A DNA stretch of 64,000 nucleotides from an uncultured Ignavibacteria bacterium (GTDB lineage Bacteria; Zixibacteria; MSB-5A5; SM1-73): assembly GCA_964588305.1 (NCBI GenBank), contig CAZPOP010000001.1, forward strand, positions 56,736 to 120,735, read 5' to 3'. How positions within the stretch are numbered: the first letter of the stretch is position 1; each line of letters begins with the position of its first letter. This document shows, piece by piece, positions 1-22,378 of the stretch. A program made the position numbers and the translations under genes. The notes below the pieces were generated by a model that saw nothing but the letters and a program-made list of their open reading frames with translations, was not told the origin of the DNA and ran no database searches.

Positions 1-1
1 G

Positions 2-241
2 AAGAATGTGACCTGTATCGTTGCTGGCGGAATGGGAAGACGAGCCGAAGCCCTCTTTGCCGAGAATGGTATCCAGACAATCGTAGGAATCTCCGATCGA
101 GTGGACAAGGTGATAGAGAAGCTGATTTCCGGGACACTTGAAGGGGGAGAAACTCTGTGTAGCCCGGGATCAGGAAGAGGCTATGGTATGGAAAAAAGCG
201 AGTGCGATCATCCGGAAGGCCACAATCACGAGTCCTCGTAA
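2..241 (+). CDS. Dinitrogenase FeMo-cofactor-binding (NifX/NifB-C-like, COG1433-type) domain protein, 5-prime truncated by window edge
   Basis: ORF 8..241 is open back to position 2. MTCIVAGGMGRRAEALFAENGIQTIVG...VIEKL matches the conserved core of the Nitro_FeMo-Co family. Confidence 0.6.
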   Translation, partial: KNVTCIVAGGMGRRAEALFAENGIQTIVGISDRVDKVIEKLISGTLEGGETLCSPGSGRGYGMEKSECDHPEGHNHESS

Positions 242-370
242 GAGGTTTTGACTCATCATTTTCTAAAAAGAAACGGGCTTTTTCATTCATTTGTAAAGGC
301 TCTGGATATGATAAGGATGCGAAAACTACATGGCGGAAACAGAGGTTGGCCTGCATGGAGTCGGGAAGGC

Positions 371-739
371 ATGATTCCGGATCGTCGCCGGCCATTACTT
401 GATTTCTCCCCATCAGGAGGAGAGGATGAACTGGGTGTTTTGAGAAGCCGAGTCCACGTTCTTCGTCAAAGGTTAGAGAGAATCAAACAGAAGATCGGCG
501 AGCCCAGGCCGATCAGAAGTCAAAAGGTTTCGGCAATTGTGGATGAAGAGGAATGCGCAGGCTGTGGGTTATGTTATGAGGTGTGTCCGACCGGAGCGAT
601 TTCCGTTAATGGAATTGCCCAAATCGATAGCAGCAAATGTATAGCTTGCCTGGCCTGTGTGAACCGATGTCCTCAAGGAGCGATAGCTGTTAAGTACAGC
701 AATAGAGAAGGGAATTCTCTCTCCACCTTCGGAAGGTAG
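371..739 (+). CDS. 4Fe-4S dicluster ferredoxin-domain protein with N-terminal helical extension
   Basis: Two CxxCxxCxxxCP motifs ([24 protein letters not shown]). ATG 371 is preceded by GGGAAGG. The longest ORF begins at TTG 248, with alternative ATG at 308. Confidence 0.6.
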
Positions 740-937
740 CCAAGGAAAAAAACTGGAATAATCATATAATTCAAAAGAACATTGTTGACTTTGTGAGAAA
801 TCGCCCGTTTGGGCTGACAGGAAGCCAAGATAGGTAGCTAACAATCTGCCTGGTGATGAAAATGCGAGGAAGGTTTGCTATTGAGATTGAATGAGTGCAC
901 TAAGCAGAATTCCAACTTTTTTAAACGGAGGTGAAAG

Positions 938-1180
938 ATGCCGAGAGGTGATGGAACAGGACCGACGGGTCAAGGACCCGGAACAGGAAGAGGTATGGGT
1001 GGGGGAGGTGGCATGGGCAAAGGAGGAGGTCGAGGCCGAATGGGCGGCAACCGTCCCGGAGCTGGGCCAAGCGGCAACTGTATATGCCCTTCTTGCGGAG
1101 CCAAGACCCCACACCAAGTGGGAGTCCCTTGTTATGATGCAGCTTGCCCCAAATGCGGCGCCAAAATGACCAGAGAGTAG
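938..1180 (+). CDS. Gly-rich small protein with C-terminal CxxC...CxxC (DUF5320-like)
   Basis: RBS GGAGGTG is 6 nt before ATG 938. The N-terminus is a G-rich low-complexity stretch (GTGRGMGGGGGMGKGGGRGRMGG). The C-terminus is CPSCGAK...CPKCGAK. Confidence 0.55.
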   Translation: MPRGDGTGPTGQGPGTGRGMGGGGGMGKGGGRGRMGGNRPGAGPSGNCICPSCGAKTPHQVGVPCYDAACPKCGAKMTRE

Positions 1181-1261
1181 AGGCAGGAAGCGACAGATAC
1201 GCGGTGAGAGCAAAGCGGAGAACTGTGGCTTTGTGATTTTCGCAGACTATGGTGGAGGACC

Positions 1262-1510
1262 ATGCCAATATACGAATATCGATGTGAAGACTGTGGTAAT
1301 GTCTCAGAAATCCTCCAGAGGGGACTGAAGGAAGAAGAACCGCCCGTATGTGCAAACTGCGGTTCAACCAAACTCCGGAGATTGATCTCCTCTCCTGCCT
1401 CGATAATAATGGGAAACTCTTCTCCCAAGGGTACCACCTGCTGTGGGCGAGAAGAACGATGTGATACCCCCCCATGTTCTACCGATGGCACCTGCAGTAG
1501 AGACGGGTAG
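1262..1510 (+). CDS. FmdB-family zinc-ribbon protein
   Basis: MPIYEYRCEDCG...CANCGS is the characteristic CxxC_CxxC_SSSS-type ribbon. Confidence 0.75.
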   Translation: MPIYEYRCEDCGNVSEILQRGLKEEEPPVCANCGSTKLRRLISSPASIIMGNSSPKGTTCCGREERCDTPPCSTDGTCSRDG

Positions 1511-1764
1511 CTTCTTAGCTCACCTGAGGAATCTGTCAAAAAAGCCCAACTTCGGGGCAGGATGAATTCCCGCCCCCATGGGCAACAACGGCTCATCACC
1601 TATGTGCGGGGATTCACCCCGAAGGACACTTTCGCCCTGCCGATGAAGCTTTTGAACAGTGCCTGAAGTTGAACGCTCCGCTCATGCTTCGTGAACAGAT
1701 TCGTCCAAGGAAGACCCAAGAACATTTCGGTTTGGGCGAAAGTCAACAGAAAGGTGGATGCCCA

Positions 1765-2613
1765 ATGATCATCTCAGTCGCCAGCGGCAAGGGGGGAACC
1801 GGAAAGACAACCATAGCTACCAGTCTGGCTCTTTTTCTGTCGGAAGAAGGGTGGAAAAAGATGCAATTCCTCGATTGCGACGTAGAAGAGCCGAACGCCC
1901 ACATTTTCTTGAAGCCCCAAATTGACAGAAGCGAGCCGGTAAATCTCCTCATCCCTAAAGTGGACGAGGGAAAATGCACTTACTGCGGCGAATGCGCCAG
2001 GGTCTGTGCATACAATGCGATAGTCGTATTGAAAAGGGAGGCTTTGGTATTTCCCGAGCTCTGTCACGGGTGTGGTGGATGCAGTCTCCTTTGTCCGGAG
2101 AGCGCGATTAGCGAAGAGAAAAGAGGGATAGGGGTGGTAGAAGAGGGCCGAGTGGGATCTATCAGATTTGTGCAGGGGCGGCTGAACATCGGTGAACCTA
2201 TGGCCACTCCTTTGATAAGGTCTCTGAAGAGGAAAATCAACCCAGAGGGGATCACCATTATCGACGTTCCGCCCGGAACCTCCTGTCCGGTAATTGAAGC
2301 CGTCCACAAAAGTGATTTCTGCATCCTGGTAACTGAGCCGACTCCTTTTGGGCTGAATGATCTCAAGTTGGCAGTTGAAACGATGAAAAAGCTCAAGATC
2401 GATCATGGAGTGGTCATCAACCGGGCAAACATAGGTGATGACAAGGTGAAAGAATACTGTAACAAAGAATCCGTCCCGATTATAGCAGAGATTCCTTATG
2501 ATCGAAATGTTGCTGTTCTTTATTCCTCAGGTATCCCTATGCTGATTGAAGGTGAGAAGTATAGAAAAATTTTCGGTCAGTTATGGGCGTCAATTAAGAA
2601 GAGAGTTAAATAG
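1765..2613 (+). CDS. MinD/ParA-superfamily P-loop ATPase with 4Fe-4S ferredoxin insert (COG1149-like)
   Basis: Walker A GKGGTGKTT is followed by two Cys clusters (CTYCGECARVC, CHGCGGCSLLCP). RBS AAGGTGG is 7 nt before ATG 1765. The longer ORF from 1669 is an unlikely start. Confidence 0.8.
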   Translation: MIISVASGKGGTGKTTIATSLALFLSEEGWKKMQFLDCDVEEPNAHIFLKPQIDRSEPVNLLIPKVDEGKCTYCGECARVCAYNAIVVLKREALVFPELCHGCGGCSLLCPESAISEEKRGIGVVEEGRVGSIRFVQGRLNIGEPMATPLIRSLKRKINPEGITIIDVPPGTSCPVIEAVHKSDFCILVTEPTPFGLNDLKLAVETMKKLKIDHGVVINRANIGDDKVKEYCNKESVPIIAEIPYDRNVAVLYSSGIPMLIEGEKYRKIFGQLWASIKKRVK

Positions 2614-3504
2614 ATGAAACAGTTGACCGTGATAAGTGGGAAGGGGGGGACTGGAAAGACAGTCATCACAGCGTCGTTTGCTTCCCTGGCTGAAAAGAAA
2701 GTGATGGCTGACTGTGATGTGGATGCTGCCGATCTTCATCTTTTGCTTCATCCCAAGATAAGAAAGACCTGCGAATTTAGGGGAGGAAAGAAGGCCGTAT
2801 TGAACCAACAACTGTGCACGAATTGCGGCAGGTGTATAGAGGTGTGCCGGTTCGATGCAATCAGCGAGAACGAAAGACGCAGCCCAGAAGAAAGCCGAAC
2901 AACAATCGATCCTATCTCCTGTGAAGGTTGTGGCGTTTGTGCCCTGATCTGCCCGGTTCAAGCCATCCAAATGCAGGAGAGCCTTTCTGGAGAGTGGTAT
3001 ATTTCGGAGACAGAATACGGCCCCATGGTCCACGCCAGATTGGGAATTGCAGAGGAGAACTCCGGTAAACTGGTGACCGTGGTAAGACATAATGCCAGAC
3101 TTATTGCCCAGGAGAAAGACTTAGATCTGGTGATCGTAGATGGTCCGCCAGGTATCGGCTGTCCGGTGATTGCCTCCATAACCGGAGTGGATCTGGTGAT
3201 GGCGGTTACCGAACCCACCATCTCGGCGATTTCCGACTTAGAACGGGTGTTGAGTCTTGCCCGTCATTTCAAAATAGAGCCTGTGGTGTTAATCAACAAA
3301 TATGATATAAATTTAGAAAACACCAAAAGGATAGAAAACTTCTGCGAAAGAGATGGCATCGAGATTGTGGGGAAGCTCCCCCTCGATAGTGCCGTGACTC
3401 AGGCTATGGTGCAGGGTAAGACAATTATTGAATATGGTGCTTCTGGTCTGGTTACAGAAATCGAAGACTCGTGGGAAAGGATTTCTACAAAATTGAAAAA
3501 ATGA
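2614..3504 (+). CDS. MinD/ParA-superfamily P-loop ATPase with 4Fe-4S ferredoxin insert, second paralog
   Basis: GKGGTGKTV Walker A, then CTNCGRCIEVC and CEGCGVCALICP. The start ATG abuts the stop of the upstream paralog. Confidence 0.8.
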   Translation: MKQLTVISGKGGTGKTVITASFASLAEKKVMADCDVDAADLHLLLHPKIRKTCEFRGGKKAVLNQQLCTNCGRCIEVCRFDAISENERRSPEESRTTIDPISCEGCGVCALICPVQAIQMQESLSGEWYISETEYGPMVHARLGIAEENSGKLVTVVRHNARLIAQEKDLDLVIVDGPPGIGCPVIASITGVDLVMAVTEPTISAISDLERVLSLARHFKIEPVVLINKYDINLENTKRIENFCERDGIEIVGKLPLDSAVTQAMVQGKTIIEYGASGLVTEIEDSWERISTKLKK

Positions 3505-3559
3505 ATTCTCTAACCTCTTGTAGATTTATCAATCCCTAACAAGGGGTGTACATATCAGG

Positions 3560-4315
3560 ATGGAAGGGTTGTATTTTTTGGCTCCCGTGATTTTCTTTGT
3601 TATTTCCTTTGTCTTCTCTATGTTAGGAATGGGAGGGAGTCAGCTTTACGTTCCAATCCTCTATTGGTTGGGAATGGATTTTAAAAGCCAAGCCATACCC
3701 CTGGGACTTTTACTAAATTTATGTGTTCAATTGTCTGCCTTTACCACGTATTCAAGAAAAAGACTGGTGAAGCCCCAGATCGCCTTACCTTTCGCCTTGA
3801 TGATGGTTATCTTTGCCCCATTAGGAGCGATGCTTAACTTTGGGTTGCCGGCTAAACCTATAATATTTCTATTTGCAGTATTTACGCTTTTAGCCGCCAT
3901 TTTGGTTTTGTCCGGCTGGAAGCCTGAAAAAGGAAAATGGAGCAAAAATAGGGAGATGACAATAACTTTGGTCATTGGCTGTGTTCTGGGATTTCTGGTG
4001 GGGCTTATTGGCCGGGGCGGAGGGTCTTTTGTCGTCCCTACACTTCTTATTTTGGGTCTTGATCCTAAAAATGCTGCTGGAACTTCTACCCTCATCGTCA
4101 GCTTTTCATCGGCTACAGGCTTTGTGGCACATTTGCTCAAAGCCAGACTGGATTTCTGGGTAACTTTCCTAACAATTATCTGTGTGATTTCAGGGTCCCA
4201 GATCGGCTCTGGTTTGATGGCTACTAGATTGAAATCACAAACTATAAAAAAGGTTTTTGGAATCGTTTTGATTTTTGTTGCAACCCTACTTTTGAAGGAT
4301 GTGTTTTTGAAGTGA
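3560..4315 (+). CDS. TauE/SafE (TSUP) family membrane permease
   Basis: Polytopic membrane protein with duplicated halves and G-rich motifs (GMGGS.., GRGGGSF) typical of DUF81/TSUP. Confidence 0.65.
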   Translation: MEGLYFLAPVIFFVISFVFSMLGMGGSQLYVPILYWLGMDFKSQAIPLGLLLNLCVQLSAFTTYSRKRLVKPQIALPFALMMVIFAPLGAMLNFGLPAKPIIFLFAVFTLLAAILVLSGWKPEKGKWSKNREMTITLVIGCVLGFLVGLIGRGGGSFVVPTLLILGLDPKNAAGTSTLIVSFSSATGFVAHLLKARLDFWVTFLTIICVISGSQIGSGLMATRLKSQTIKKVFGIVLIFVATLLLKDVFLK

Positions 4316-5247
4316 AAACCATAGTCTATGGACCGGTTCCCTCCCGAAGATTGGGGATTTCTCTGGGAGTGGACATCGTTCCTTACAAGATCTGCAGCTA
4401 TGACTGCATTTACTGCCAGTTGGGGAAGACCACAAATCAAACCACCCAGAGGGGATCCTTTATTCCAGTCGACTCCGTGATAAAGGAGATAAAGGAAGTG
4501 ATAGATCAAAACAGCGACATTGACTACATAACCTTTTCCGGATCAGGTGAGCCAACTTTGAACAAAGACATTGGCCGGATGATAGAAAAGGTAAGGAGAA
4601 TTACCCCCATTCCGGTCGCTGTTCTGACCAATGGATCTTTGCTGTGGGACCGTGAGGTCAGAGAGGATCTGGGCGAGGCGGATCTGGTTGTCCCTTCGTT
4701 GGATGCCGTTTCAGAGAAGGTCTTTCGAAAAGTCAACCGTCCGGTTGCGGGTTTGGGAATTGAAAAGGTTCTACGTGGATTGAAAACCTTTTGCGCGCAG
4801 TTCAAGGGAAAGATCTATTTAGAGATCATGCTGGTCAAAACCGCCAATGACTCTGAAGAGGAAATCGGGGAGATCAATCGATTCGTTAAGAACCTCAGGA
4901 TCGATGAGATTCAGCTTAACACGGTGGTCCGCCCTCCAGGTGATCCAGATGCAAGGCCGCTGAACCAAGAGGAACTGAACGAAGTCAGAAGTTTGTTCGA
5001 TCCGAAGCTCAAAGTGGAAGTGATCGCCAATTTCAAGAGGGAAACAAGCAAGGCTTACCACAAGGATCTGGAGCAGGCAATAATTGAGCTCGTAAGAAGG
5101 AGGCCCACGAAGAAAGAGGAGATGGCCGTTTCCTTAGGAGTCCATCCTAATGAGATTGCCAAGTATTTGCAGGTTTTGGAGGATAATAGAACAATCAAAA
5201 GATCATGGGGCAAGGAGAAGTCGACCGTTTATTTTGTAATCGCTTAA
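4312..5247 (+). CDS. Radical SAM protein (COG0731-like) with C-terminal winged-helix-like region
   Basis: CSYDCIYC is a Cx3Cx2C motif after GPVPSRRLGISLGVD. The GTG start overlaps the TGA of the upstream gene by 4 nt. Confidence 0.7.
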   Translation: MKTIVYGPVPSRRLGISLGVDIVPYKICSYDCIYCQLGKTTNQTTQRGSFIPVDSVIKEIKEVIDQNSDIDYITFSGSGEPTLNKDIGRMIEKVRRITPIPVAVLTNGSLLWDREVREDLGEADLVVPSLDAVSEKVFRKVNRPVAGLGIEKVLRGLKTFCAQFKGKIYLEIMLVKTANDSEEEIGEINRFVKNLRIDEIQLNTVVRPPGDPDARPLNQEELNEVRSLFDPKLKVEVIANFKRETSKAYHKDLEQAIIELVRRRPTKKEEMAVSLGVHPNEIAKYLQVLEDNRTIKRSWGKEKSTVYFVIA

Positions 5248-5259
5248 CGGAGGAAGGCG

Positions 5260-6147
5260 ATGAAAACCTATTTAGATTGTGTCCCTTGCATAATTGAACA
5301 GACAATTAAAGCTGCCAGAGATTTGACCCAAGATTTGGAAAAACAGGAAAGCCTGTTACAGAAGGTATTGGAGATCCTCAGCAACATCTCCTACAACCAG
5401 TCTCCACCTTATCTGGGGAGAGAGGCACATCGGGTGATCCGCTCCATTCTGAATAATCCCGATCCTTATTCAAAACTGAAAAGACGGTTCAACCAGGTGG
5501 GGAAAGAGCTCTTTCCTTCCTTGCAGGAGCGGGTCAATGATTCGAAAGACCCGTTCGCCCAAGCAGTGAAGCTGGCCATTGCCGGTAACATCATCGATTT
5601 TGGTCCCCCGCATCACTTCGAGTTGAGAGAAACCATTGACAAAGCTTTGAAGGCGAAGCCTGCCATTGACCATACCGAGAGTTTAAGAGAAGACATAGAG
5701 TCAGCCTCGACCATCCTCTATCTGGGAGACAATGCTGGGGAGACCTTCTTTGACAGGATACTGATCGAACAAATGCCGGCCAAGGAGATTTACTTTGGGG
5801 TGAGGGGCAGTCCGGTGATAAACGATGCCACCTCGGAGGATGCCTACTGGGCGGGATTAGACAAAAGGACCAAGATCATCTCCAATGGCTCGGATGCCCC
5901 AGGAACCATACTTGAAGATTGTTCTAATGAATTCCAGGACCTCTTTGCCAGATCCGATCTGGTGATCGCCAAGGGACACGGAAACTACGAAACCTTAAGT
6001 GAGGTGCAGGGGAAAAGACTCTATTTCCTTCTCATGGTGAAGTGCGAAACCATAGCCAAGGATATTGGCTGTTCGGTCGGGGAATTCGTGGTCAAGAAAA
6101 CAGAGAGCGTCTTGGAGCCAAAGGCGCAGGCGCTTGGGAAAAAATGA
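5260..6147 (+). CDS. DUF89 / ARMT1-like (damage-control phosphatase family) protein
   Basis: The N-terminus MKTYLDCVPCIIEQ and overall size are typical of DUF89. RBS GGAGGAAGG is upstream. Confidence 0.6.
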   Translation: MKTYLDCVPCIIEQTIKAARDLTQDLEKQESLLQKVLEILSNISYNQSPPYLGREAHRVIRSILNNPDPYSKLKRRFNQVGKELFPSLQERVNDSKDPFAQAVKLAIAGNIIDFGPPHHFELRETIDKALKAKPAIDHTESLREDIESASTILYLGDNAGETFFDRILIEQMPAKEIYFGVRGSPVINDATSEDAYWAGLDKRTKIISNGSDAPGTILEDCSNEFQDLFARSDLVIAKGHGNYETLSEVQGKRLYFLLMVKCETIAKDIGCSVGEFVVKKTESVLEPKAQALGKK

Positions 6148-6518: not shown

Positions 6519-9500
6519 ATGGCAGGAAAAATGAATCCGGGGCGGCAATCATGGCTGCGAGAGAAATTTGGCAGCCGGGTGAGCTTCAACCGGATCGAGC
6601 GCAAACTGTACGGTCACGACATCGCTGCCATGCCCAGTTTGTTCAAACCGATTATAGGGAACACAATACCGGAGGCGGTGGTTCAGCCGGAGACGGAGCA
6701 CGAGGTCGTCGAGCTGGTACGTTGGGCGGTCACAAACAACATTGCACTGACTCCCCGGGCCAAAGCATCATCCGGCTATGGTGGAGTGATCCCGGTCAAG
6801 CAGGGATTGGTTGTTGACTTTTACCGAATGAAAAAGATTCTGCGCGTCGATGCTGAGGCTCAGACTGCGACGGTTGAAGCGGGAGTGGTTTGGGAGGCCC
6901 TGGACAGGGAACTGGCCAAGCACGGCTTAACTTTGCGGCTCTATCCCAGCAGCTATCCGTCGTCCACTGCCGGCGGCTGGCTGGCTCAGGGCGGTGCCGG
7001 GTTCGGTTCTTACGAGGCTGGTTGGTACCGCGACAACGTGCTGAGCGTCAGGGTGGTGTTGCCCTCCGGGGAGGTGCGCGCGTTTGCCGGCGATGAGTTG
7101 GACCTCATCGCTGACGCGGAAGGCATAACGGGTCTTATCACCGAGGTCACCCTCAAGGTTCAGCCGCTTGAAGAACTTGATGTAGTGAGCATCGGCTGCC
7201 CCAATCCGCATGACCTGCAGCGTCTGATAGAGTCGATCCTCGGCTCGAATTTGCCTATCTGGTCGCTGGTCTTCATCAATCCCAGAATGGCTGAGCTCAA
7301 GAACCGGGCACCTTTGATGGAGCATTACGGGCACCCGGTCGAGGAGCGCGTGCTGCTGCCCGCCGCATACATCATAACTTTAGCTTACCGCAAAAAAGAC
7401 CGCGGATCAGTCACGGACAAGCTGCCAAAACTTCTGAAGCAGTGCGAGGCAGAAATCCTGAGCGAGCGCATAGCTGAGCATGAATGGAAGAACCGGTTCA
7501 AGCTCATGATCGTAAAGCGGCTTGGGCCTTCGTTGGTGCCGGCTGAAGTCGTTATCCCGCTTTCTAACTTGGGAAAGGTGATGACCGAGATCGAGGCCGA
7601 GATTAACCAGCCTTTGGTCAAAGAGGGTTTGGTTATCCGGCAGGGTGCGGGCGGTAAGCCGGAGGTCATCATCCTGGGTTTCATCCCCAGTGACGAGCGC
7701 AAGTTCAGCTACAACTTCGTCTTTGCTTTGGCATTGACTTTGATGAAGATCGCGGAGAAGCACGGTGGTCGACCATACGCAACGGGCATGTATTTCGGAA
7801 GTCAGGCTGACGTTATCTTGGGTAAAGAGAGAGTACAAAAGCTGCGCGCCTTCAAGTCGCAGATCGATCCCAAAGGTATCATGAATCCGGGCAAGGTTAT
7901 TGGCAGAGGGTTGGTTGGCACAACGCTGAGCTTGGCCCGCGCGTTCGAGCCGCTGGTTCGCCCCTTTGGCAATCATGTCATAGCCCAGGTGGGCGAGCGT
8001 CCGACTAAGCCCGTAAGAGGCATTCCGGCGGACGTGGCCTGGTACGCATATGGCTGTTCTCAGTGCGGCTACTGCATCGACGAGTGCGACCAGTTCTACG
8101 GCCGAGGCTGGGAAAGCCAGAGCCCCCGAGGAAAGTGGTACTGGCTTCGGGAGTACATGGAAGGTCGCGAGGAGTGGACCCAGTTCATGGTGGATACCTT
8201 CTTAGTCTGCACTACCTGTGAGTTGTGCAACCTGCGCTGCTCGGCAGTCTTGCCTATTGAGCCGTCGTGGATGAAGCTGCGGGGCAAGCTTATTCATGAA
8301 GACAAGAGAATGACTTTCCCGCCTTTTGAGATAATGGCAGCCGCTCTGCGGGCCGAGGGCGACATCTGGGCCGGTTATCGCAAAGACCGGTCGAATTGGT
8401 TTCCCCCGGACCTTTTGGCAAAGCATGGGCCGGGTCGGAGGTCTAAGAATGTCTACTTTGCTGGCTGCACGGCAAGCTACGTGGAAAAGGACATAGCCAT
8501 GGCCAGCGTACGCTTGCTGGACGAGGCGGGCGTGGATTTCACCTATGTGGGCGAAAAGGAAAACTGCTGCTCCACCCCCATGTTGGTGGCCGGAAAATGG
8601 GACGTATTCCTTGAGACCATGAACAAGAATCTACAGGCAGTCAAGGAGACCGGAGCGGACACGGTGATCTGCTCCTGTCCTGCCTGCGACATGATGTGGC
8701 GCCAGGTGTATCCGAGATGGGCCGAGAAGCTTGGCATTGAGTATGGGATTACCGCCAGGCACTACAGCGAGATCCTATCAGAGAAGATCAAGGCCGGCCA
8801 GTTCAAGTTCCCTCCCAACGACAAGCAACCAGTGACGGTTTCCTGGCATGACTCGTGCCACATAGGTCGGGTTTCTGGAGTGTATGAGCCCCCGCGAGAC
8901 CTGATCAAGGCTATCCCCAACGTGAACTTGGTCGAGATGAGTCACAACCGGGAGGATGCACACTGCTGCGGCTCGGTTCTAACTTTAATTAAGGAGCCGG
9001 CAGTGGCTTATGAGATTGGTCGGACCCGTCTGGAAGAGGCGATTGAAGCCGGGGCAGAAAAAGTTTTGGCCCTGTGCCCTTGCTGTGAATTTCAGTTCCG
9101 GGTGGCCGCAGAAAAGAAGAAAGTCCCGGTAGAGATCGTGGATTTAGCCCGTTTCGCCTCATCGGCACTGGGCTACGAATTCCCCGATCCGCATCCGGAA
9201 GTGGAAGCCCAGTGGGCAGTCTTCGATGCGATGATCGCCCTGATGACGCCGGAAGGCTTCGCTGAGCTGATGAAAACCATGTGGCCGGAGCTTATCAGAG
9301 CCATGCCCTTCAAGATGGGGACAATGATGCGCGTCATGGGGAAGATTCCCGGTGCGCCGAATTTGATGAAGCCGTTGTTCCCTATCCTCTTCCCCAGGCT
9401 CTTGCCAAAGATGATGCCAAAAGTCATGGCGGTGATGCTAAAACGAGTAGGTGAGCGCATCCCCATGCCCGACTACATGGCCGAACAGATGCCGGAGCTG

Positions 9501-9599
9501 ATGCCGAAAGTTATGGACAACCTCATGCCTCACATGATTGGTGATGTGGTTCCCTTAGTAACACAGCCGATGATCGATCACCTAAGAGGAAAGAATTAA
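6519..9599 (+). CDS. FAD-linked oxidase (GlcD-like) fused to 4Fe-4S and two CCG (GlcF/heterodisulfide-reductase-like) domains; YdiJ-like oxidoreductase
   Basis: The N-terminus is an FAD_binding_4/oxidase region. Central region has Cx2Cx2Cx3C clusters (CSQCGYCIDEC, CTTCELCNLRC). The C-terminus has two CCG-type Cys motifs (CCSTP...CPAC, CCGS...CPCC). Total length is 1026 aa. Confidence 0.8.
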   Translation: MAGKMNPGRQSWLREKFGSRVSFNRIERKLYGHDIAAMPSLFKPIIGNTIPEAVVQPETEHEVVELVRWAVTNNIALTPRAKASSGYGGVIPVKQGLVVDFYRMKKILRVDAEAQTATVEAGVVWEALDRELAKHGLTLRLYPSSYPSSTAGGWLAQGGAGFGSYEAGWYRDNVLSVRVVLPSGEVRAFAGDELDLIADAEGITGLITEVTLKVQPLEELDVVSIGCPNPHDLQRLIESILGSNLPIWSLVFINPRMAELKNRAPLMEHYGHPVEERVLLPAAYIITLAYRKKDRGSVTDKLPKLLKQCEAEILSERIAEHEWKNRFKLMIVKRLGPSLVPAEVVIPLSNLGKVMTEIEAEINQPLVKEGLVIRQGAGGKPEVIILGFIPSDERKFSYNFVFALALTLMKIAEKHGGRPYATGMYFGSQADVILGKERVQKLRAFKSQIDPKGIMNPGKVIGRGLVGTTLSLARAFEPLVRPFGNHVIAQVGERPTKPVRGIPADVAWYAYGCSQCGYCIDECDQFYGRGWESQSPRGKWYWLREYMEGREEWTQFMVDTFLVCTTCELCNLRCSAVLPIEPSWMKLRGKLIHEDKRMTFPPFEIMAAALRAEGDIWAGYRKDRSNWFPPDLLAKHGPGRRSKNVYFAGCTASYVEKDIAMASVRLLDEAGVDFTYVGEKENCCSTPMLVAGKWDVFLETMNKNLQAVKETGADTVICSCPACDMMWRQVYPRWAEKLGIEYGITARHYSEILSEKIKAGQFKFPPNDKQPVTVSWHDSCHIGRVSGVYEPPRDLIKAIPNVNLVEMSHNREDAHCCGSVLTLIKEPAVAYEIGRTRLEEAIEAGAEKVLALCPCCEFQFRVAAEKKKVPVEIVDLARFASSALGYEFPDPHPEVEAQWAVFDAMIALMTPEGFAELMKTMWPELIRAMPFKMGTMMRVMGKIPGAPNLMKPLFPILFPRLLPKMMPKVMAVMLKRVGERIPMPDYMAEQMPELMPKVMDNLMPHMIGDVVPLVTQPMIDHLRGKN

Positions 9600-9871: not shown

Positions 9872-10852
9872 ATGCTGAAAACGACAGTTGTGGGAAACTA
9901 TCCTAAGATAACGGCGGACAAATCTGCTCCCAATCTCAGATCGGCGCTCAACAAGTTCGATCGAAATAAGATTTCCGAGGAGGAACTGGAGAGGGTTTAT
10001 CAGGAAACTATCCAGAGAGTGATAAGAGAACAGGAAGAGGCAGGCGTGGACCTGATCACCGACGGACAGATCAGGTGGGATGATCCGGTTACTCCATTTG
10101 CCAGAAATATCGATGGACTGGAGGTTGGTGGTTTGATTCGTTTTTTTGACAACAATGTTTATTACCGAAGACCTGTGGTCAAATCCAAGCTGGCATTCAA
10201 GGACTATTCAACCGTGGAGGAATTTGCATTCTTAAAACGGAACTCAACTAAGGAAGTCAAAGCAGTCATTGTCGGCCCGTTCACCTTTGCCAACCTTGCA
10301 AAGGATGAATACTATAACGACATTGACAAACTCACTTTGGATCTGGCCGAAATCCTGAAAAAAGAGGCAAAGAAGTTAGAGGAAGCGGGTGCAGAATTTA
10401 TTCAGATCGATGAGCCTTCATTATGCTTTTCACCCGAGAAGATCGATCTGGCAAATCAAGCAATTAAGGTCATTACCGACGGTTTGAAGGCCAAGACCTT
10501 CTTGTACCTTTATTTCGGGGGGATCAAAAATCTGATTCCCGCACCTTTTGATTTCCCGGTCGACGGGATCGCAATCGACGTTGTCAGCAGACCTGAGAAT
10601 CTTGATCTTATATTGGAAGGTTCATTTGACAAGGAACTTGTCTTGGGCTGTTTGGATGCAAGGAACACAAGGTTGGAGGAAGAAGAGGAGCTTTTGAAGC
10701 TATTCCAGAGAACAACTCAGAAGATTTCCAGTGAGAGGATATACGTCAGTCCATCCTGCGGGCTGGAGTTTCTGCCTCATGAGGCGGCACTCGCGAAATT
10801 GAAAAGGATGGTGCAGTCGGCAAAGAAGTTCAATCTCGGCGGAGACGATTGA
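9872..10852 (+). CDS. MetE-like (UROD/MetE superfamily) protein lacking the zinc-ligand His-x-Cys; resembles MetE N-terminal (folate-binding) domain
   Basis: Clear similarity to cobalamin-independent methionine synthase domains (VGNYPK, DGQIRWDD, IQIDEP, SPSCGLEF). The position of the HxC zinc motif reads FLYLYFGG. Confidence 0.6.
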   Translation: MLKTTVVGNYPKITADKSAPNLRSALNKFDRNKISEEELERVYQETIQRVIREQEEAGVDLITDGQIRWDDPVTPFARNIDGLEVGGLIRFFDNNVYYRRPVVKSKLAFKDYSTVEEFAFLKRNSTKEVKAVIVGPFTFANLAKDEYYNDIDKLTLDLAEILKKEAKKLEEAGAEFIQIDEPSLCFSPEKIDLANQAIKVITDGLKAKTFLYLYFGGIKNLIPAPFDFPVDGIAIDVVSRPENLDLILEGSFDKELVLGCLDARNTRLEEEEELLKLFQRTTQKISSERIYVSPSCGLEFLPHEAALAKLKRMVQSAKKFNLGGDD

Positions 10853-10870
10853 CCAACTGAAGAGGTTGTG

Positions 10871-11836
10871 ATGTTGCTTACTACCACAGTGGGAAGCTTT
10901 CCCAAACCCGATTATCTGGTCAAAGCAAGGAATCTGTTCAGCCGGAAAAAGATCAGCGAAGATGAACTGAGGGAGCTGGAGAGGAAAGCTACGCGCGAGA
11001 TTATAAAACTCCAAGAGGGAATAGGCCTGGATATTCTGGTGCACGGCGAGATGGAACGCGCCGATATGGTGACCTTTTTTGCCGAGAGACTAGAGGGCTT
11101 CGGCATAAGTGGCCTGGTCCGTTCCTATGGCAACAGATACTACAAAAAACCAATTGCTAAAGGGAAGATCAAAAGAAATCATCCCATCGCCCTGGAGATG
11201 TTCCAATATGCGCAGAGCTTGACCCAAAAACCGGTAAAGGGAATGCTTACCGGTCCCTATACCATGTGCGACTGGTCCTTTAATGAATACTTTCCAACAC
11301 GGCGGGATTTGGTTTTGAATTTGGCAGAGGTGGTTCATCAGGAGGCTTTAGATCTGGATCACGCGGGAGCGAAATACATTCAGATAGACGAGCCAGCCAT
11401 CTCCACCCGTCCTTCGGAGATTGATCTGGCAATCGAGGCCATGAAGATCGTTACCGATGGTTTGAGGGCTAAGACCGTTTCTCACATCTGTTACGGAGAC
11501 TTCACCACCATCTATCCCAGGATTCTTAGTCTCGCGGTGGATCAACTGGATTTGGAGTTCGCCAATAACGACTTTGCCAATCTGGAGATTTTCAAGAATC
11601 CCCGCTTCACCAAAGAGATTGCCGTGGGCGTCATCGATGTGCATTCGCACGTGATTGAGACCAAGCAGAAGGTGAAAAGTAACATCAAAAGGGCGTTAGA
11701 GGTTTTTCCTCTGGAAAAGGTCTATATCGACCCGGATTGCGGCTTGAAGACCAGGACGCTGGAAGAGTCAGAGGCGAAGCTGAAGGTTATGGTGTCGGCT
11801 GTGAGGGAAGTTAAGGAAGAAATGGGGCTGAAATAA
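10871..11836 (+). CDS. Core cobalamin-independent methionine synthase (MetE C-terminal catalytic domain-like) with intact Zn ligands
   Basis: VGSFPKP, VHGEMERADMV, IQIDEPA and the SHICYGDF (H-x-C) and DPDCGLK Zn-ligand motifs. ATG at 10871, with an in-frame GTG at 10868. Confidence 0.7.
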   Translation: MLLTTTVGSFPKPDYLVKARNLFSRKKISEDELRELERKATREIIKLQEGIGLDILVHGEMERADMVTFFAERLEGFGISGLVRSYGNRYYKKPIAKGKIKRNHPIALEMFQYAQSLTQKPVKGMLTGPYTMCDWSFNEYFPTRRDLVLNLAEVVHQEALDLDHAGAKYIQIDEPAISTRPSEIDLAIEAMKIVTDGLRAKTVSHICYGDFTTIYPRILSLAVDQLDLEFANNDFANLEIFKNPRFTKEIAVGVIDVHSHVIETKQKVKSNIKRALEVFPLEKVYIDPDCGLKTRTLEESEAKLKVMVSAVREVKEEMGLK

Positions 11837-11837
11837 A

Positions 11838-13733
11838 ATGGCAGATCCATTTTTGGAAAGACTGAAAAAGGGAACCATGCTCTGCGACGGTGCCATGGGA
11901 ACTCTGCTTTACTCCCGAGGAACAGGATTCGAGCATCCCTTTGATGAGCTGAATCTGTCTAAGCCGGACATGGTTCAGAAAGTCCATCAGGATTATATCA
12001 AGGCCGGAGCAGAGATTATCGAGACCAACACGTTCGGAGGGAACAGATACAGGCTGGGCGCTCATGGGCTTCCGGGAAGAATCAGAGAGATCAACATCAG
12101 AGGAGCAGGTATTGCCCGGGAGGCACGAGAGATTGAGGGTGAACCTGTCTTTGTGGGCGGGTCGATCGGACCTCTGGGAAGACCGCTGGCTCCCATCGGA
12201 AAGATCACCTCAAAGCAGGCTTTTGAAGCGTTTCAGGAGCAGGCAGAAGCACTGGCTGAAGCCGGAGTGGATCTTTTCATAATCGAGACCTTTTCCGATT
12301 TGGTTGAAATCAAGGAAGCTATCAGAGCCGTAAGAGGAGCATCCAAGCTACCGATCATTGCCCAGATGACATTTACCGAGGAGGGTTTGACCTTGATGGG
12401 CCACACACCTTCCGGGATTGCCAAAGAGCTGGAAAAGATAGAGGTTGACGTCATTGGCGTCAATTGCAGCGTAGGCCCGCAAAGGGTTCTGGATGCAATT
12501 CACCAGATGAGAAAAGTCACCTCTTCCAAATTATCTGCTCAGCCCAATGCAGGATTCCCCAGGTTTGTGGACGGAAGATTCATATATCTTTCCTCGCCGG
12601 AGTATTTTGCAGAATATACCAAGAGATTTCTCAGCGCTGGGGTGGCGGTTTTGGGAGGTTGCTGCGGCACCACGCCTGAGCACATTCAAGCCATGGCCAA
12701 GGTGCTCAAAGAGAAAGAATCCGGCTCAAATGAAAATGCCGGAGTAATCGAAGTCGAAAGAGAGTTCGAGGAGCAAGTCACCGTAGAAGAGTTGATTGAA
12801 CCCTCGACTTTTGCTTCTAAACTGAAAGAGAAATTCGTGATCTCGGTGGAATTGGATCCTCCCCGCGGCGTGAATCCCAAAAAGGTTTTAAGGCAAGCTC
12901 AATTGATCAGGGACAGGGGCATCGATGCGGTGAACATAGCCGACAGCCCCATGGCCAGGGTCAGGATGGGCTGTCTTTCTTTGGCCGCTCTGGTCAAAGA
13001 GAAAGTAGGGCTGGAGGTTATTCTTCATCTGACCTGCCGGGACAGAAACCTTATGGGACTGCAGTCCGATCTGATGGGAGCGCACGCTTTGGGCATTCGG
13101 AGTATACTTGCCGTAACCGGCGATCCTCCCAGATTGGGAGATTACCCTCATGCCACGGCAGTCTATGACGTCGATTCCATAGGTTTGGTAAAGATAATCA
13201 AGAAGCTGAACCAGGGCACGGACTGGGCCGGCAACTCCATAGGCTCGCCCACCTCCTTTTGTACCGGGGTAGGCGCAAATCCGAATGCACTCGATTTTGA
13301 AAAGGAAATGGAGAGATTGAGGCAGAAAGTTGAAGCCGGTGCAGATTTCATCTTCACTCAACCTCTGTATGATAATGAAACCTTGAATGGTTTTTTGGAA
13401 AGAGCGCAAGGGTTGAATCTTCCTATTCTGGTGGGCCTGCTCCCCTTGCACAGCTTCAGACAGGCGGAGTTTTTGCATCATGAAGTCCCAGGCATTGCCA
13501 TCCCTCAGAACATACGAGACAGAATGAAAAGCGCGGGTGAAAGGGGAATAGAAGAAGGCATTACTATCGCCAGAGAATTCTTAGAAGAGATTAAACAGAG
13601 AATTTCCGGAGTTTATCTGGTTCCCTCCTTTGGAAAAGTCGAGTTGGCATTGGAAGTAGTAGAAGATATCTCCTTTTCAAAATACCTTTCCTCTCCACAA
13701 AGCGACGGGGGTAGAAACCCTTTCACAGCGTGA
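11838..13733 (+). CDS. Bifunctional homocysteine S-methyltransferase / methylenetetrahydrofolate reductase (YitJ-like fusion)
   Basis: The N-terminal half is an Hcy-binding S-methyltransferase domain (CDGAMGT, ETNTFGGN, GGCCGTTP). The C-terminal half is MetF-like (ILHLTCRDRN, AVTGDPP). Confidence 0.8.
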   Translation: MADPFLERLKKGTMLCDGAMGTLLYSRGTGFEHPFDELNLSKPDMVQKVHQDYIKAGAEIIETNTFGGNRYRLGAHGLPGRIREINIRGAGIAREAREIEGEPVFVGGSIGPLGRPLAPIGKITSKQAFEAFQEQAEALAEAGVDLFIIETFSDLVEIKEAIRAVRGASKLPIIAQMTFTEEGLTLMGHTPSGIAKELEKIEVDVIGVNCSVGPQRVLDAIHQMRKVTSSKLSAQPNAGFPRFVDGRFIYLSSPEYFAEYTKRFLSAGVAVLGGCCGTTPEHIQAMAKVLKEKESGSNENAGVIEVEREFEEQVTVEELIEPSTFASKLKEKFVISVELDPPRGVNPKKVLRQAQLIRDRGIDAVNIADSPMARVRMGCLSLAALVKEKVGLEVILHLTCRDRNLMGLQSDLMGAHALGIRSILAVTGDPPRLGDYPHATAVYDVDSIGLVKIIKKLNQGTDWAGNSIGSPTSFCTGVGANPNALDFEKEMERLRQKVEAGADFIFTQPLYDNETLNGFLERAQGLNLPILVGLLPLHSFRQAEFLHHEVPGIAIPQNIRDRMKSAGERGIEEGITIAREFLEEIKQRISGVYLVPSFGKVELALEVVEDISFSKYLSSPQSDGGRNPFTA

Positions 13734-14190
13734 GTAAGGCCAGCTCCGGTGGCGTTGGTGGGCTTGGTGACCTTGGTGATCTTCGTTTTGAAAATTTTCT
13801 TCCTCACTAATCATCTCCTCCTGTCTTTCCATATAGCTCCCTCTCAATAACAGGCGACCTATAGGTTTCACCACAAAAGTTGTGGGGAAAATGCTCGGCG
13901 TGGGTGAGTGTTCCCCAAGTCAGTGATGATTTTTCCCGGTTGACCAACCCAAGTCATATTGTCAGTGAAAAACACCGACAGGGAGTGGGGACAGGGGGTC
14001 TTTGTCCTGTAGTTGGACCCATTCAACGATTTATCTTGACTTTTGTTCGTCTCGCAATTATAGTTCTACGAAACTCGACGAGAGAGAGAAAGTGATTGAG
14101 ATAGAATAGGCTTTACGCGCTAGATAGAGACAAGAAACAGTTCCTTCACTATGGTTATTTAACATCGACAGGAGCCGTTGTACTGAAGCG

Positions 14191-15429
14191 ATGAGGACAG
14201 TAACAACAAATCAGGAAAAAAGTGCTAAGGTGTATTCAAGTCCTATGAGTCCACCCATTGTTTCAAGCGACGTAACGCCGGATACGCCGCTTGACAATAT
14301 GAACCTGAATTGGCGTGAGAAGGATTTACCTGAGAAAGAGCGGACAAAACACGTTCACAGGCTACATCCATACTTAGGTAAATTCATACCCCAACTGGTC
14401 GAAATCTTCCTCCGAAAATACTTCCTTCCTGGCCAAACGGTACTTGACCCATTTTGCGGATCGGGAACGACCTTGGTTCAAGCTAATGAGCTTGGGATCA
14501 ATGCGATAGGGTACGACATCTCTGCTTTTAACATACTAATTTGTCGTGCAAAGACGACCAAGTACAATGTCGAGAAGGCACGTGTTGAGGTGTTTGATAT
14601 ATTGAATAAGGTGCGTTCTTTGACCGGGACCAACAAGAATCAGGGAGACTTTTGGGACCAGAGTTTTGCTTCGCACCCGTTGTGTGAGTCAGCTAGTCGG
14701 TACCTAAGAAATTGGTTCGCACCGCAGGCCCTGCGTGAATTGCTAACGTATAGGCAACTGATCGATGAAGGGGACTATTCTTGCAGTGACTTACTTAAAG
14801 TTGTCCTATCTCGGTCTGCGAGGTCAGCTCGTATGACTACTCATTACAACCTTGATTTCCCTAAGGACCCGCAAAGGGAGCCATATTGGTGCCATAAGCA
14901 CGCGAGAACATGTCAACCCACAAAGGAAGCCTTCAAGTTTTTGAGGCGATATAGCATAGACACCATGAGAAGAATTGAGCAATACGCCGCGCTGCGGACG
15001 AACGCAAGAGTGATCGCTAGACACGTAGACAGCCGCCGTGAGAAATACCCAGCAATCGACGGGGTGATTACGAGTCCGCCATATGTCGGGTTGATTGACT
15101 ACCACGAGCAGCACATTTACGCTTATCACTTACTTGGACTTAATGAACGCCGTCATCACGAAATTGGGTCTGCGGCTAATGGGTCAAGCCAAAAGGCGAA
15201 GGAGGAGTATCAGCGAGACATTTGTGAGGTTTTTGCGCGGATTGTGAAATCGATGTCGAGAGGAGGCTATCTAATTGTTGTGGCGAACGATAAGGCAAAT
15301 CTGTATGGGAAGATAGCGGACATGGTGGGAGCGGAGGTGGAGGGGATTGTGGAACGTCACGTCAATCGCAGGACGGGTAGACGAGCGACTGATTTCTACG
15401 AGTCAGTTTTCATCTGGCGGAAAGGGTAA
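14191..15429 (+). CDS. DNA methyltransferase, N6_N4_Mtase family (motif IV SPPY suggests N4-cytosine)
   Basis: DPFCGSGTT AdoMet motif and TSPPY catalytic motif. Adjacent to a candidate endonuclease. Confidence 0.75.
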   Translation: MRTVTTNQEKSAKVYSSPMSPPIVSSDVTPDTPLDNMNLNWREKDLPEKERTKHVHRLHPYLGKFIPQLVEIFLRKYFLPGQTVLDPFCGSGTTLVQANELGINAIGYDISAFNILICRAKTTKYNVEKARVEVFDILNKVRSLTGTNKNQGDFWDQSFASHPLCESASRYLRNWFAPQALRELLTYRQLIDEGDYSCSDLLKVVLSRSARSARMTTHYNLDFPKDPQREPYWCHKHARTCQPTKEAFKFLRRYSIDTMRRIEQYAALRTNARVIARHVDSRREKYPAIDGVITSPPYVGLIDYHEQHIYAYHLLGLNERRHHEIGSAANGSSQKAKEEYQRDICEVFARIVKSMSRGGYLIVVANDKANLYGKIADMVGAEVEGIVERHVNRRTGRRATDFYESVFIWRKG

Positions 15430-15440
15430 CTCAAGAGAAT

Positions 15441-16280
15441 ATGCGGGCTATTAAGCGCAACACACGAGTTAAGATTAAAGCTTACCTTGAGGTTTTTGTT
15501 GAGAACCTTGTGAAGGAGTACAGGGGCCGCGTAATTCCACCGATTGGCTCAGCGAAGAAGTACTTGAGAAAGAAATCCTCGAAGGGACAGCTTAAACCTT
15601 TTCATGCTGCAATAATTCCGCATGGGTTGCTTCGCATCAATGAGTTTGAAAGAGGCTTCAGCACCGGCTTGGGGACAACATTTGAAGAATGTGCCCGTCT
15701 GATTGCACAAGACCATCATAGCGAAGCTCAACGAGGTTATAACCTCACGGCCACAGTGAGCAATGCAGCTGTAGAGGAGATTGACAGACAGGTAAGTGTT
15801 TTGGAGCACACAGTGGACATGAAAAACCGAAAGCCTTCCCTTCACGCGATGATTGAGGCTGTTATGGGCGCTCGAAGAGATGACGATTTGTCACAAAGGA
15901 CAAGCCGGGCGGATTTATATATCCTTGAGAAAGACGGTAACGAGCTGTTCTTTGAGATGAAATCTCCGATGCCAAACAAAGGACAGTGTCTGGAAGTTAC
16001 ACAACGAGTGCTGAGATTTCATTTGTTGCGGGGCTCCGGCCGCCCAGTGGTGAGTTCGTACTTTGCTATGGCTTATAATCCTTATGGGCCTAATCGGTCT
16101 GACTACAGGTGGTCATTTGCCTTGAACTACACGCCCTTTGATGAAATGATACTACTTGCTCAAGAATTCTGGGAGCTTGTAGGAGGCAGGACGGCCTATG
16201 AGGAATTGATAGAGATTTACCGCGAGGTAGGCCATGAAAAGGCAAAGTATATGGTTGATGCTTTGGCTTTCGGATTTTAG
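15441..16280 (+). CDS. Putative Type II restriction endonuclease (PD-(D/E)xK-like motif)
   Basis: The gene starts 9 nt downstream of the MTase stop. RADLYILEKDGNELFFEMKS fits a D...E.K nuclease core. No family was recognised by eye. Confidence 0.4.
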   Translation: MRAIKRNTRVKIKAYLEVFVENLVKEYRGRVIPPIGSAKKYLRKKSSKGQLKPFHAAIIPHGLLRINEFERGFSTGLGTTFEECARLIAQDHHSEAQRGYNLTATVSNAAVEEIDRQVSVLEHTVDMKNRKPSLHAMIEAVMGARRDDDLSQRTSRADLYILEKDGNELFFEMKSPMPNKGQCLEVTQRVLRFHLLRGSGRPVVSSYFAMAYNPYGPNRSDYRWSFALNYTPFDEMILLAQEFWELVGGRTAYEELIEIYREVGHEKAKYMVDALAFGF

Positions 16281-21479: not shown

Positions 21480-21563
21480 GGAACCTTAGCAGGGAGCGAT
21501 GCGCGGGAGTGTCAGGCCTGAAGGATTCTTGATGAAGCCATACTCGCAAGACGTCTCTATCAG

Positions 21564-21581
21564 GTTCACCTAAAGGTGAAC
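21564..21581. repeat. Hairpin GTTCACCtaaaGGTGAAC followed by ACTCC (family also at 43274 and 53314)
   Basis: Lies between convergent GT39 and osmC genes. The weak T-run (AGTTTTCT) makes it a candidate bidirectional terminator. Confidence 0.4.
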
Positions 21582-21612
21582 ACTCCAGTTTTCTATCTCT
21601 GCATCAAAATCG

Positions 21613-22029
21613 CTATTTATTGTTGATATTCCAATTATGGGTAATTTCAGCTTTTTCTCTCAACATGGCAGTGACCGAGCAATACTTTTCCTGAGACAGC
21701 TCGATTGCTTTTTTCACATTCTCTTCTTTGATGTCTCTTCCGACAAAATCATAATGGATGTTTATTTTGGTGAATATCTTGGGATGCTCCGGCGCCCGTT
21801 CGGAATCGATCTTGACGGTCATGCTTTCTAAATCGGTCCTCATCTTTTTTAGAATGGATACCACGTCCATGGCGGTGCAGCCGCCTAACGAGACCATCAG
21901 AAGCTCCATGGGCGCGGGTCCCTTGTCCTCGCCTCCGACTTCCGGTTTAGCATCCATCAGGACCGAATGCCCGGATTCGGTTTTTGCCTCAAATACCATT
22001 TTTCCCTTCCAGGTGAATTCGGTCAGCAT
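21613..22029 (-). CDS. OsmC/Ohr-family peroxiredoxin-like protein
   Basis: 138 aa. GGCTAMDV and CSVTAML are conserved Cys motifs of OsmC. Confidence 0.8.
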   Translation of the reverse strand: MLTEFTWKGKMVFEAKTESGHSVLMDAKPEVGGEDKGPAPMELLMVSLGGCTAMDVVSILKKMRTDLESMTVKIDSERAPEHPKIFTKINIHYDFVGRDIKEENVKKAIELSQEKYCSVTAMLREKAEITHNWNINNK

Positions 22030-22378
22030 GTGTTCTCCTTATTAAAGAAATCTATAAATTCTATTTAACATTTACCACCCAGCCAATGATTTATTCATTA
22101 GGAATGAACAAGCAAGCCGTGAAGGCTTGCCTGCGCGCCAAAGGGGAAGAAAGGCTGAGTCTTTTTATCTGATTTGGTCTTCGATGTTCTTCTGTTCCTC
22201 CGGAACAGCGCAACTTCTTTTCAGTCAGGTGTTGACACCCAATAAGGGCAGCAGGAATCCCCAGATCAAAAGCCACAAGACAAAGATCAAGACGAAAGTC
22301 AGGATGGTTTTTAAATCCATGATTTTACTTTTCATATTTTTAGGCTGCAGAGGAGACTCCTCTGAAGAAAGTGCTCTA

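Follow-up and report, generated by a model that had tools for sequence, protein, structure and literature searches.

The 64,000-nucleotide (nt) stretch of DNA analysed here (the window; contig CAZPOP010000001.1, positions 56,736 to 120,735, from an uncultured Ignavibacteria bacterium that GTDB places in Zixibacteria) opens with nine co-directional genes, g1 to g9 (window 2..6147), predicted to handle metals, iron-sulfur (Fe-S) clusters or radicals. Which system do these genes encode, and which protein does it serve? A preliminary description had taken them as an uncharacterised nine-gene unit and had named a 1026-amino-acid FAD/Fe-S/CCG oxidoreductase immediately downstream as the nearest candidate client. 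We can now say with high confidence that the cluster is an operon of the ORP (orange protein) type, of which the window holds the downstream two-thirds of about 14 genes.

Identity of the cluster

The ORP complex has been studied in Desulfovibrio vulgaris and D. alaskensis (PMC6345978, PMC8359166, PMC3897727). In D. vulgaris Hildenborough it comprises two paralogous ATPases, Orp3 and Orp4, with two [4Fe-4S] ferredoxin motifs each, the NifX-family orange protein Orp8 with a non-covalent Mo-Cu-S cluster, and Orp9/MrpORP, in which an Mrp/NBP35 domain is fused to a NifX-like (Di-Nase) domain (PMC6345978). The ATPase pair co-purifies with the orange protein, and MrpORP binds a [4Fe-4S] cluster and passes it in vitro to the Orp3-Orp4-Orp8 proteins (PMC6345978). 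Orp5 is a small Fe-S protein. The orp operons are found in anaerobes, and their expression is confined to low redox potential (PMC6345978, PMC3897727, PMC8359166).

The same parts were found in the window and on a JGI metagenome contig (L001), which was retrieved by exact look-up of g6, is 100% identical to the window across 4889 nt and reaches 4049 nt upstream of the window edge. Pfam and NCBIfam profile searches on the open reading frames (ORFs) of the window agreed with the domains given to the nine plus-strand genes in the preliminary description, including its paralogous ATPase pair with ferredoxin inserts. These two proteins, g5 or ATPase A (1765..2613, +) and g6 or ATPase B (2614..3504, +), each combine a CbiA/ParA P-loop with a Fer4 insert (Pfam) and are 32% identical. 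Their alignment showed an invariant deviant Walker A motif (GKGGTGKT) and eight invariant insert Cys, and three further Cys are near-invariant in both ATPase types. Both are MinD-like with two Fer4 stretches each, and the start codon of g6 abuts the stop codon of g5.

The upstream flank on L001 supplied the remaining parts. After ybaB and recR come, all on one strand, a DUF134 DNA-binding protein (the first cluster gene, taken as the regulator), an Mrp/NBP35 ATPase, two DUF5320 proteins, an orange-protein-like NifX protein and g1, that is, five cluster genes beyond the window plus the complete g1 (133 amino acids, L001 3889-4290). The window itself holds only the 3' end of g1 (2..241, +; 79 of 133 codons; Nitro_FeMo-Co in Pfam, NifX-like, 'Di-Nase'), and the operon starts about 2.9 kb upstream, so the supposed nine-gene unit was a cluster cut by the window edge. 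The orange-protein-like gene (L001 3489-3854, 121 amino acids) has Nitro_FeMo-Co as its single domain (Pfam, 89 bits) and matched the D. gigas orange protein (PDB 2WFB) at E 6.7e-20; g1 gave no match to 2WFB. The Mrp protein is a NUBPL-type ParA ATPase (337 bits) with the CxxC motif of MrpORP (CPHC), and its best NCBIfam match is the MrpORP profile NF041136 (387 bits over positions 1-256, with ApbC at 246 bits). Full-length g1 matched the same profile at positions 265-365 (97 bits) and keeps its HFG.C motif and its terminal CDH motif, the latter known from MrpORP's Di-Nase domain (PMC6345978), and neither protein alone reaches the 450-bit equivalog cutoff. MrpORP is split into two genes here, g1 being the stand-alone counterpart of its C-terminal domain, and this agrees with the several independent origins reported for the fusion (PMC6345978).

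The core of the cluster can hardly be called uncharacterised, since it is that of the Desulfovibrio ORP operon, whose Mrp protein loads Fe-S clusters onto the ATPase pair in vitro. What it shares with the Desulfovibrio system (orp3-orp4-orp5/orp7-orp8-orp9, DVU2103-DVU2109; also D. alaskensis G20) are the ATPase pair, the orange protein, the Mrp/NBP35 and Di-Nase domains, the restriction to anaerobes and, judged by position, a candidate for the small Cys-rich protein before the ATPases. Desulfovibrio has two divergent operons, a fused MrpORP and the PAS-sigma54 activator OrpR, whereas here a single co-directional operon carries the two MrpORP domains in separate genes with three other genes between them and has DUF134 as its regulator. 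Three DUF5320-type genes, a ferredoxin, an FmdB protein, TauE, radical SAM and DUF89 are extra. The one-operon version with split MrpORP, DUF134, three DUF5320-type genes, TauE, radical SAM and DUF89 appears to be undescribed in the searchable literature.

Three small genes lie between g1 and the ATPase pair. The first, g2 (308..739, +), is a 2x[4Fe-4S] ferredoxin with two Fer4 stretches (Pfam) and an N-terminal extension of about 90 amino acids, in which no similarity to the DUF5320 coiled coil was found. The second, g3 (938..1180, +), encodes a small, basic, Gly-rich protein with the DUF5320 N-terminal motif (MPRGDGTGP.GQGPGTGRG) and a 6-Cys ribbon; its DUF5320 score is 22 bits, under the Pfam cutoff of 27 bits, and the motif is shared with the two bona fide DUF5320 genes on L001, which score 48 and 84 bits. 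The third, g4 (1262..1510, +), is an FmdB-family CxxC...CxxC zinc ribbon (Pfam Zn_ribbon_8, 59 bits; NCBIfam TIGR02605). By position only, g3 and g4 stand where orp5 stands in the Desulfovibrio order orp5-orp4-orp3 (PMC8359166), and g3, which like orp5 comes shortly before the ATPase genes, is for this reason a candidate for a small Fe-S protein of the Orp5 type. Gene calls on L001 and homologue alignment indicate that g2 probably starts at 308 (not 248) and g5 at 1765.

The genes had been described as tightly spaced. This holds for g5 to g9, where the gaps are 0, 55, -4 and 12 nt (g7 and g8 overlap by 4 nt), and fails before g3 (198 nt) and before g5 (254 nt); neither of these wider gaps gave an Rfam match at E<=0.1 (searched on L001) or notable repeats. 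On the JGI contigs that are identical to the window, automatic gene calling passed over g3 and g4 and reported in their place an out-of-frame ORF (window 891-1169, +; L001 4940-5218) and an antisense ORF (window 1132-1599, -; L001 5181-5645). Since such calls skip both genes, small DUF5320-type and ribbon genes are probably under-annotated in metagenomes.

Conserved neighbours and frequent accessories

The conservation of the cluster was measured on one genome per GTDB species, scanned with an alignment of both ATPase types, and the best 80 loci (1.10 Mb in sum) were used, their six-frame ORFs being searched with the window proteins. The g6-type ATPases of these loci are 50-69% identical to g6, and none of the loci is from Desulfovibrio. 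More than 15 phyla of anaerobes are represented, with bacteria from Zixibacteria, Ignavibacteria, Planctomycetota, Omnitrophota, Chloroflexota/Dehalococcoidia, Clostridia, Atribacteria, Acidobacteriota, Aminicenantes, Elusimicrobia, Verrucomicrobiota and Desulfobacterota, and archaea from Bathyarchaeia, Methanophagales, Methanocellaceae, Methanosarcinales, Thermoplasmatota and Altiarchaeota.

The g5-type ATPase was found directly upstream of ATPase B in 71 of the 80 loci, followed in frequency by NifX-like proteins (66), DUF5320 (52), Mrp (41), FmdB (28), DUF134 (19) and an MBL-fold protein that the window lacks (18). Unbiased clustering of the ORFs added, among others, a SAM methyltransferase (14 loci), FUR-family regulators (10), a DnaJ-domain protein (10) and CGGC-domain proteins (8). 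The conserved core is the ATPase pair with NifX-like, DUF5320 and Mrp proteins, and the ferredoxin type of g2, present in 9 loci, is an accessory part. The families recur co-directionally in different species far above chance, and the general idea of a metal or Fe-S handling module kept across anaerobes was upheld. So was the claim that no classical nif genes are present: neither the recurrent families of the 80 loci nor the annotated window genes up to 27.7 kb include NifEN/NifDK-like scaffold or nitrogenase genes.

Beyond these loci, a census in a library of 1.84 billion proteins, taken as representatives at 50% identity, gave 707 ATPase representatives at E<=1e-30. About 30 of the best 150 are A-B fusions, and fused proteins of 600-700 amino acids were also located in four loci (L032 8822-10876, L051 5033-6910, L065 153-1994 and L138 16956-18911). 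Because fusions exist in the order of the genes, g5 and g6 are probable heterodimer partners.

The radical SAM gene g8 (4312..5247, +; Pfam Radical_SAM) has homologues in 19 of the 80 loci and the DUF89 gene g9 (5260..6147, +; ARMT1-like/DUF89, Pfam 241 bits over residues 4-275) in 18, every copy on the ATPase strand, and seven of the radical SAM genes abut ATPase B. Both occur together in seven loci, and the copies are spread over at least 12 phyla, Archaea included. If each family has about one copy per 3-Mb genome, which is our own estimate, less than one copy would be expected in 1.10 Mb. Thirty-eight loci reach 5 kb or more to either side of the ATPase, and in these radical SAM was found 11 times, DUF89 nine times and either of them 16 times. 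Three radical SAM homologues that were looked up independently all lie directly after the ATPase pair. Radical SAM and DUF89 are thus frequent, not universal, accessories of ORP-type clusters.

The g8 protein has a compact PFL-activase/NifB-like core with a single CX3CX2C site, and a winged helix at its C-terminus. An N-terminal GPVPSRRLGxSLG motif is common to its 23 cluster-linked homologues, in which no Cys other than the three of CX3CX2C reaches 90% conservation, which argues that g8 carries no auxiliary cluster; the extra ligands for the auxiliary K clusters of NifB were not found in these homologues. JGI labels g8 homologues 'wyosine synthetase' (TYW1), a label that neither the TYW1 equivalog score nor the Wyosine_form domain supported.

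The g9 protein aligned over its full length with PDB 2G8L (PH1575) and 2FFJ (AF1104) at E of about 1e-48 and about 35% identity. The D/N/G/E of its DNxGE motif and the K/G/N/E of KGxGNxE are invariant with both, and a CxxC and a further Cys are also kept. It lies under the NCBIfam equivalog cutoffs (206 against 440 bits for NF040824, 178 against 500 bits for NF041594). The protein is a typical member of DUF89 subfamily I, with a metal-dependent phosphatase fold, and no equivalog of the characterised enzymes.

For a reverse sample, PH1575 served as the reference for 80 metagenome loci anchored on DUF89 subfamily I. Of these, 21 had an ORP-type gene close by and 10 a radical SAM gene. Twenty loci extended for 3 kb or more to either side, and nine of them carried ORP genes or radical SAM. 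Several loci show a radical SAM and DUF89 pair with no ORP genes visible. DUF89 subfamily I is therefore often, not always, tied to the ORP-type system. Long ORFs that suggested radical SAM or DUF89 domain fusions (L106, L025, L163) contained an upstream open frame only and no extra domain.

This tie across phyla between one radical SAM family, DUF89 subfamily I and ORP-type clusters appears to be the chief novelty. No report of it was found in the searchable literature; an earlier mention in the founding ORP paper of 2011 is possible.

TauE is different. The g7 protein (3560..4315, +), a TauE/SafE (TSUP) family membrane transporter (Pfam TauE, 141 bits), has divergent counterparts in only four of the 80 loci (L008, L022, L044 and L084; Pfam and hidden Markov model searches), which rules it out as a core part. 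All four are co-directional and next to cluster genes, so TauE may be an occasional accessory, a link that is suggestive only.

One of these four loci, in an Ignavibacteria metagenome-assembled genome (L008 4352-13471), has the same order as L001 and the window combined, with TauE, radical SAM and DUF89 included and an extra MBL-fold gene. Its ATPase is 67% identical to g6, and the downstream oxidoreductase is absent. Such a match could stem from lateral transfer among lineages of the FCB group or from a problem in binning.

Possible function and competing explanations

As a whole, we consider it fairly probable that the locus is best explained as an ORP-type operon for the handling of Fe-S or metal sulfide with optional add-ons. 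For the functional part, in which ATP would drive a complex that keeps Fe-S or metal-sulfide clusters or passes them on where conditions are sulfidic and of low potential, we see an even balance when it is set against cell-division and cofactor-synthesis alternatives. In such a complex, g5 and g6 would join into a MinD/NifH-class sandwich heterodimer that depends on ATP, with four [4Fe-4S] clusters on the ferredoxin inserts and perhaps one further cluster at the interface, bound through the Cys that aligns with NifH Cys132. The NifX-like proteins would bind inorganic metal-sulfide clusters non-covalently, and together with the heterodimer and the basic, Gly/Arg-rich DUF5320 proteins they would hold, reduce or hand over clusters when sulfide and iron are plentiful. 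Radical SAM and DUF89 would be optional add-ons, their target probably being one of the complex's proteins or a small phosphorylated molecule that it uses. TauE, an occasional add-on, may transport a sulfur anion. The system would not include the downstream oxidoreductase.

No solved structure of a P-loop ATPase with a ferredoxin insert of this type was found, and an AlphaFold2 (AF2) model of g6 (predicted local distance difference test score, pLDDT, 88.8) ranked MinD as the closest fold (Foldseek E 5e-12), then FleN/FlhG, NifH, HypB, BchL and Cfd1. With NifH and the SIMIBI ATPases (MinD, HypB, CooC, Cfd1/Nbp35) the pair shares the deviant Walker A and the fold class. In g5 and g6 the Fe-S insert sits where NifH has Cys97, and unlike in NifH and the other SIMIBI ATPases each subunit has its own inserted 2x[4Fe-4S] ferredoxin domain and the dimer would be one of paralogues. 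Cys183 of g6 (window 3160), seven residues past the switch II Asp, aligns with NifH Cys132, a [4Fe-4S] cluster ligand; the g6 Cys is invariant and has an equivalent in g5, whereas the same alignment has Asp there in Mrp and Thr in MinD. These Cys may be ligands of an interface cluster, giving a nucleotide-controlled cluster face like that of NifH.

A second line of thought comes from sulfide and iron. The DUF5320 proteins contain 23-30% Gly with RG repeats and have isoelectric points (pI) of 9.4-10.7, and the g3 subtype, in 28 homologues from related loci, has medians of 6 Cys, 29% Gly and pI 9.6. This composition recalls the NifX-family protein IssA of Pyrococcus furiosus, whose cationic Gly-rich tail binds thioferrate (PMC5524996). 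Both systems have a NifX-family domain, and MTH1175, on which IssA was modelled, is one of the best matches of known structure to the orange-protein-like gene. Both also have basic Gly-rich sequence and an expression tied to sulfide-rich conditions. The basic segment is a tail of the NifX domain in IssA, whereas here it lies on separate DUF5320 proteins. Sparging with N2 and syntrophic growth both turn the orp genes off (PMC8359166); we, not the authors of that study, read these conditions as low in free sulfide.

One of the three radical SAM contexts that were looked up (L003, in a 2.7-Mb genome) has the cluster flanked by FUR, FeoA, FeoB, an encapsulated-ferritin/rubrerythrin-like gene, a CGGC-domain gene and a further NifX-like gene (2517-3211, 12708-14154 and 17247-18971), flanks that point to iron homeostasis.

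Several points weigh against the placement and the function proposed for it. On L001, matches to a sigma54 -24/-12 promoter were below the shuffled expectation, and the cluster has a DUF134 regulator and no OrpR. PAS-sigma54 activators with the domain architecture of OrpR occur in 16 of the 80 related loci, so sigma54 and OrpR are a lineage feature and do not define ORP operons. The orthology of g5 and g6 to DVU2103/DVU2104 is suggested through shared architecture and gene order, through the matches to MrpORP and to the orange protein and through the description in the literature, and neither protein was matched singly to Orp4 or Orp3. The putative interface cluster hangs on one aligned Cys and on NifH and MinD sequences entered by hand, and the thioferrate analogy is one of composition only. 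Neither radical SAM nor DUF89 is present in 50 of the 80 ATPase loci, and of the DUF89 subfamily I genes whose flanks are readable, about half or more stand without an ORP gene in the vicinity. PH1575 is a DUF89 protein of solved structure, and the two loci nearest to it (L088 and L089) contain neither ORP nor radical SAM genes; g9 differs from these two by lying in an ORP-type operon. For the ORP complex of Desulfovibrio itself, the authors favour a link to cell division.

That view is also the strongest competitor: the ATPases could be MinD-like spatial regulators for septum or polar positioning in anaerobes, with Fe-S clusters serving only as redox sensors, as proposed for Desulfovibrio ORP. 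MinD is the closest solved fold of g6, and the orp genes have been called 'putatively involved in cell division', with MrpORP located at the poles (PMC6345978, PMC3897727). We consider it unlikely here. No minC- or minE-like gene is recurrent in the 80 loci, where the recurrent neighbours are Fe-S and metal proteins, Fur-family regulators, radical SAM and a phosphatase. Division machineries differ among Archaea and Bacteria, and the cluster is found in diverse members of both. The ATPases also scored far under the NCBIfam MinD cutoffs (minD_bact 58.5 bits against 213, minD_arch 56-62 bits against 202).

More doubtful still is the assembly of a FeMo-co-like cofactor, in which the radical SAM protein would act like NifB, the NifX-like proteins as carriers and the ATPases like NifH, with a Mo/W-S or carbide-type product. 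The three families of proteins do invite it, but the g8 homologues keep only the three Cys of CX3CX2C and hence lack ligands for NifB-type K clusters, radical SAM is missing from about 70% of the full-flank clusters (present in 11 of 38) and cannot be a core step, and no NifEN-like scaffold is recurrent.

It is very improbable that radical SAM, DUF89 and TauE are merely chance neighbours that follow the ORP core in this genome. Each is missing from most ORP-type loci, and DUF89 subfamily I genes often stand without ORP genes, but the counts given above, all co-directional and against less than one expected copy, refute this for radical SAM and DUF89, and the radical SAM copies are one family with a common N-terminal motif. 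For TauE a chance arrangement is plausible.

Downstream genes and wider meaning

The last explanation, that of the preliminary description, holds that the cluster is a dedicated maturation system for the 1026-amino-acid oxidoreductase, and we give it next to no credence: the gene is adjacent and co-directional, 370 nt after g9, with no terminator found between them in a simple scan, so that read-through is possible, but none of the 80 ATPase loci has a close homologue (at least 200 bits) near the cluster, and the closest relative with equal gene order, L008, lacks it. These neighbourhood counts largely refute its role as client. Weaker CCG- or FAD-domain hits numbered 5-6 in the pooled ATPase- and DUF89-anchored loci (160 loci, 1.8 Mb), some of them on the opposite strand or 4-9 kb off, which is about chance level by our own estimate of how frequent such genes are in anaerobes. 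The sole hint of a CCG link is an HdrD-like protein (Fer4_8 and two CCG domains) between radical SAM and DUF89 in one locus (L118 735-1910). The C-terminal part of the oxidoreductase itself, about 150 amino acids (window 9150-9599), is Met/Pro-rich (…MPKVMAVMLKRV…MPELMPKVMDNLMPHM…), and no Pfam match extends past about residue 878.

The genes after the oxidoreductase are those of an ordinary chromosome, with a methionine/methyl-tetrahydrofolate (methyl-THF) set, a restriction-modification pair, comEC, lpxD and bamA. Window 9872-13733 holds two short MetE-like genes (Meth_synt_2, 326 and 322 amino acids) and then a homocysteine S-methyltransferase-MTHFR fusion (631 amino acids), which looks like a compact methionine/methyl-THF module. 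An N4/N6 DNA methyltransferase beside a TdeIII-type restriction endonuclease (window 14191-16280) forms a type II restriction-modification pair. Near 21-22 kb (window ~21000-22500), the GC skew changes sign and the gene orientation switches from + to -.

The ORP complex, which was described more than a decade ago, has a wide distribution among strict anaerobes, bacterial and archaeal. Its recognition here gives the cluster a literature and a biochemical starting point. The analysis also clears away one misleading idea, that the client is the oxidoreductase downstream. The link with radical SAM and DUF89 is a handle both on what the ORP complex does and on the purpose of prokaryotic DUF89 enzymes. 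A bolder reading, which we hold to be speculative and rather unlikely in its entirety, is that of an anaerobe-wide system for storing or mobilising iron-sulfide or another metal-sulfur species. The NifX-like domains and DUF5320 proteins would hold the material, the NifH-like heterodimer would drive its reduction or release, and in roughly one lineage in three radical SAM and DUF89 would alter a component of the system or one of its small-molecule ligands. If this were true, it would give prokaryotic DUF89 subfamily I and the g8 radical SAM family their first physiological context, and it would shift the ORP complex from cell division to metal-sulfur metabolism.

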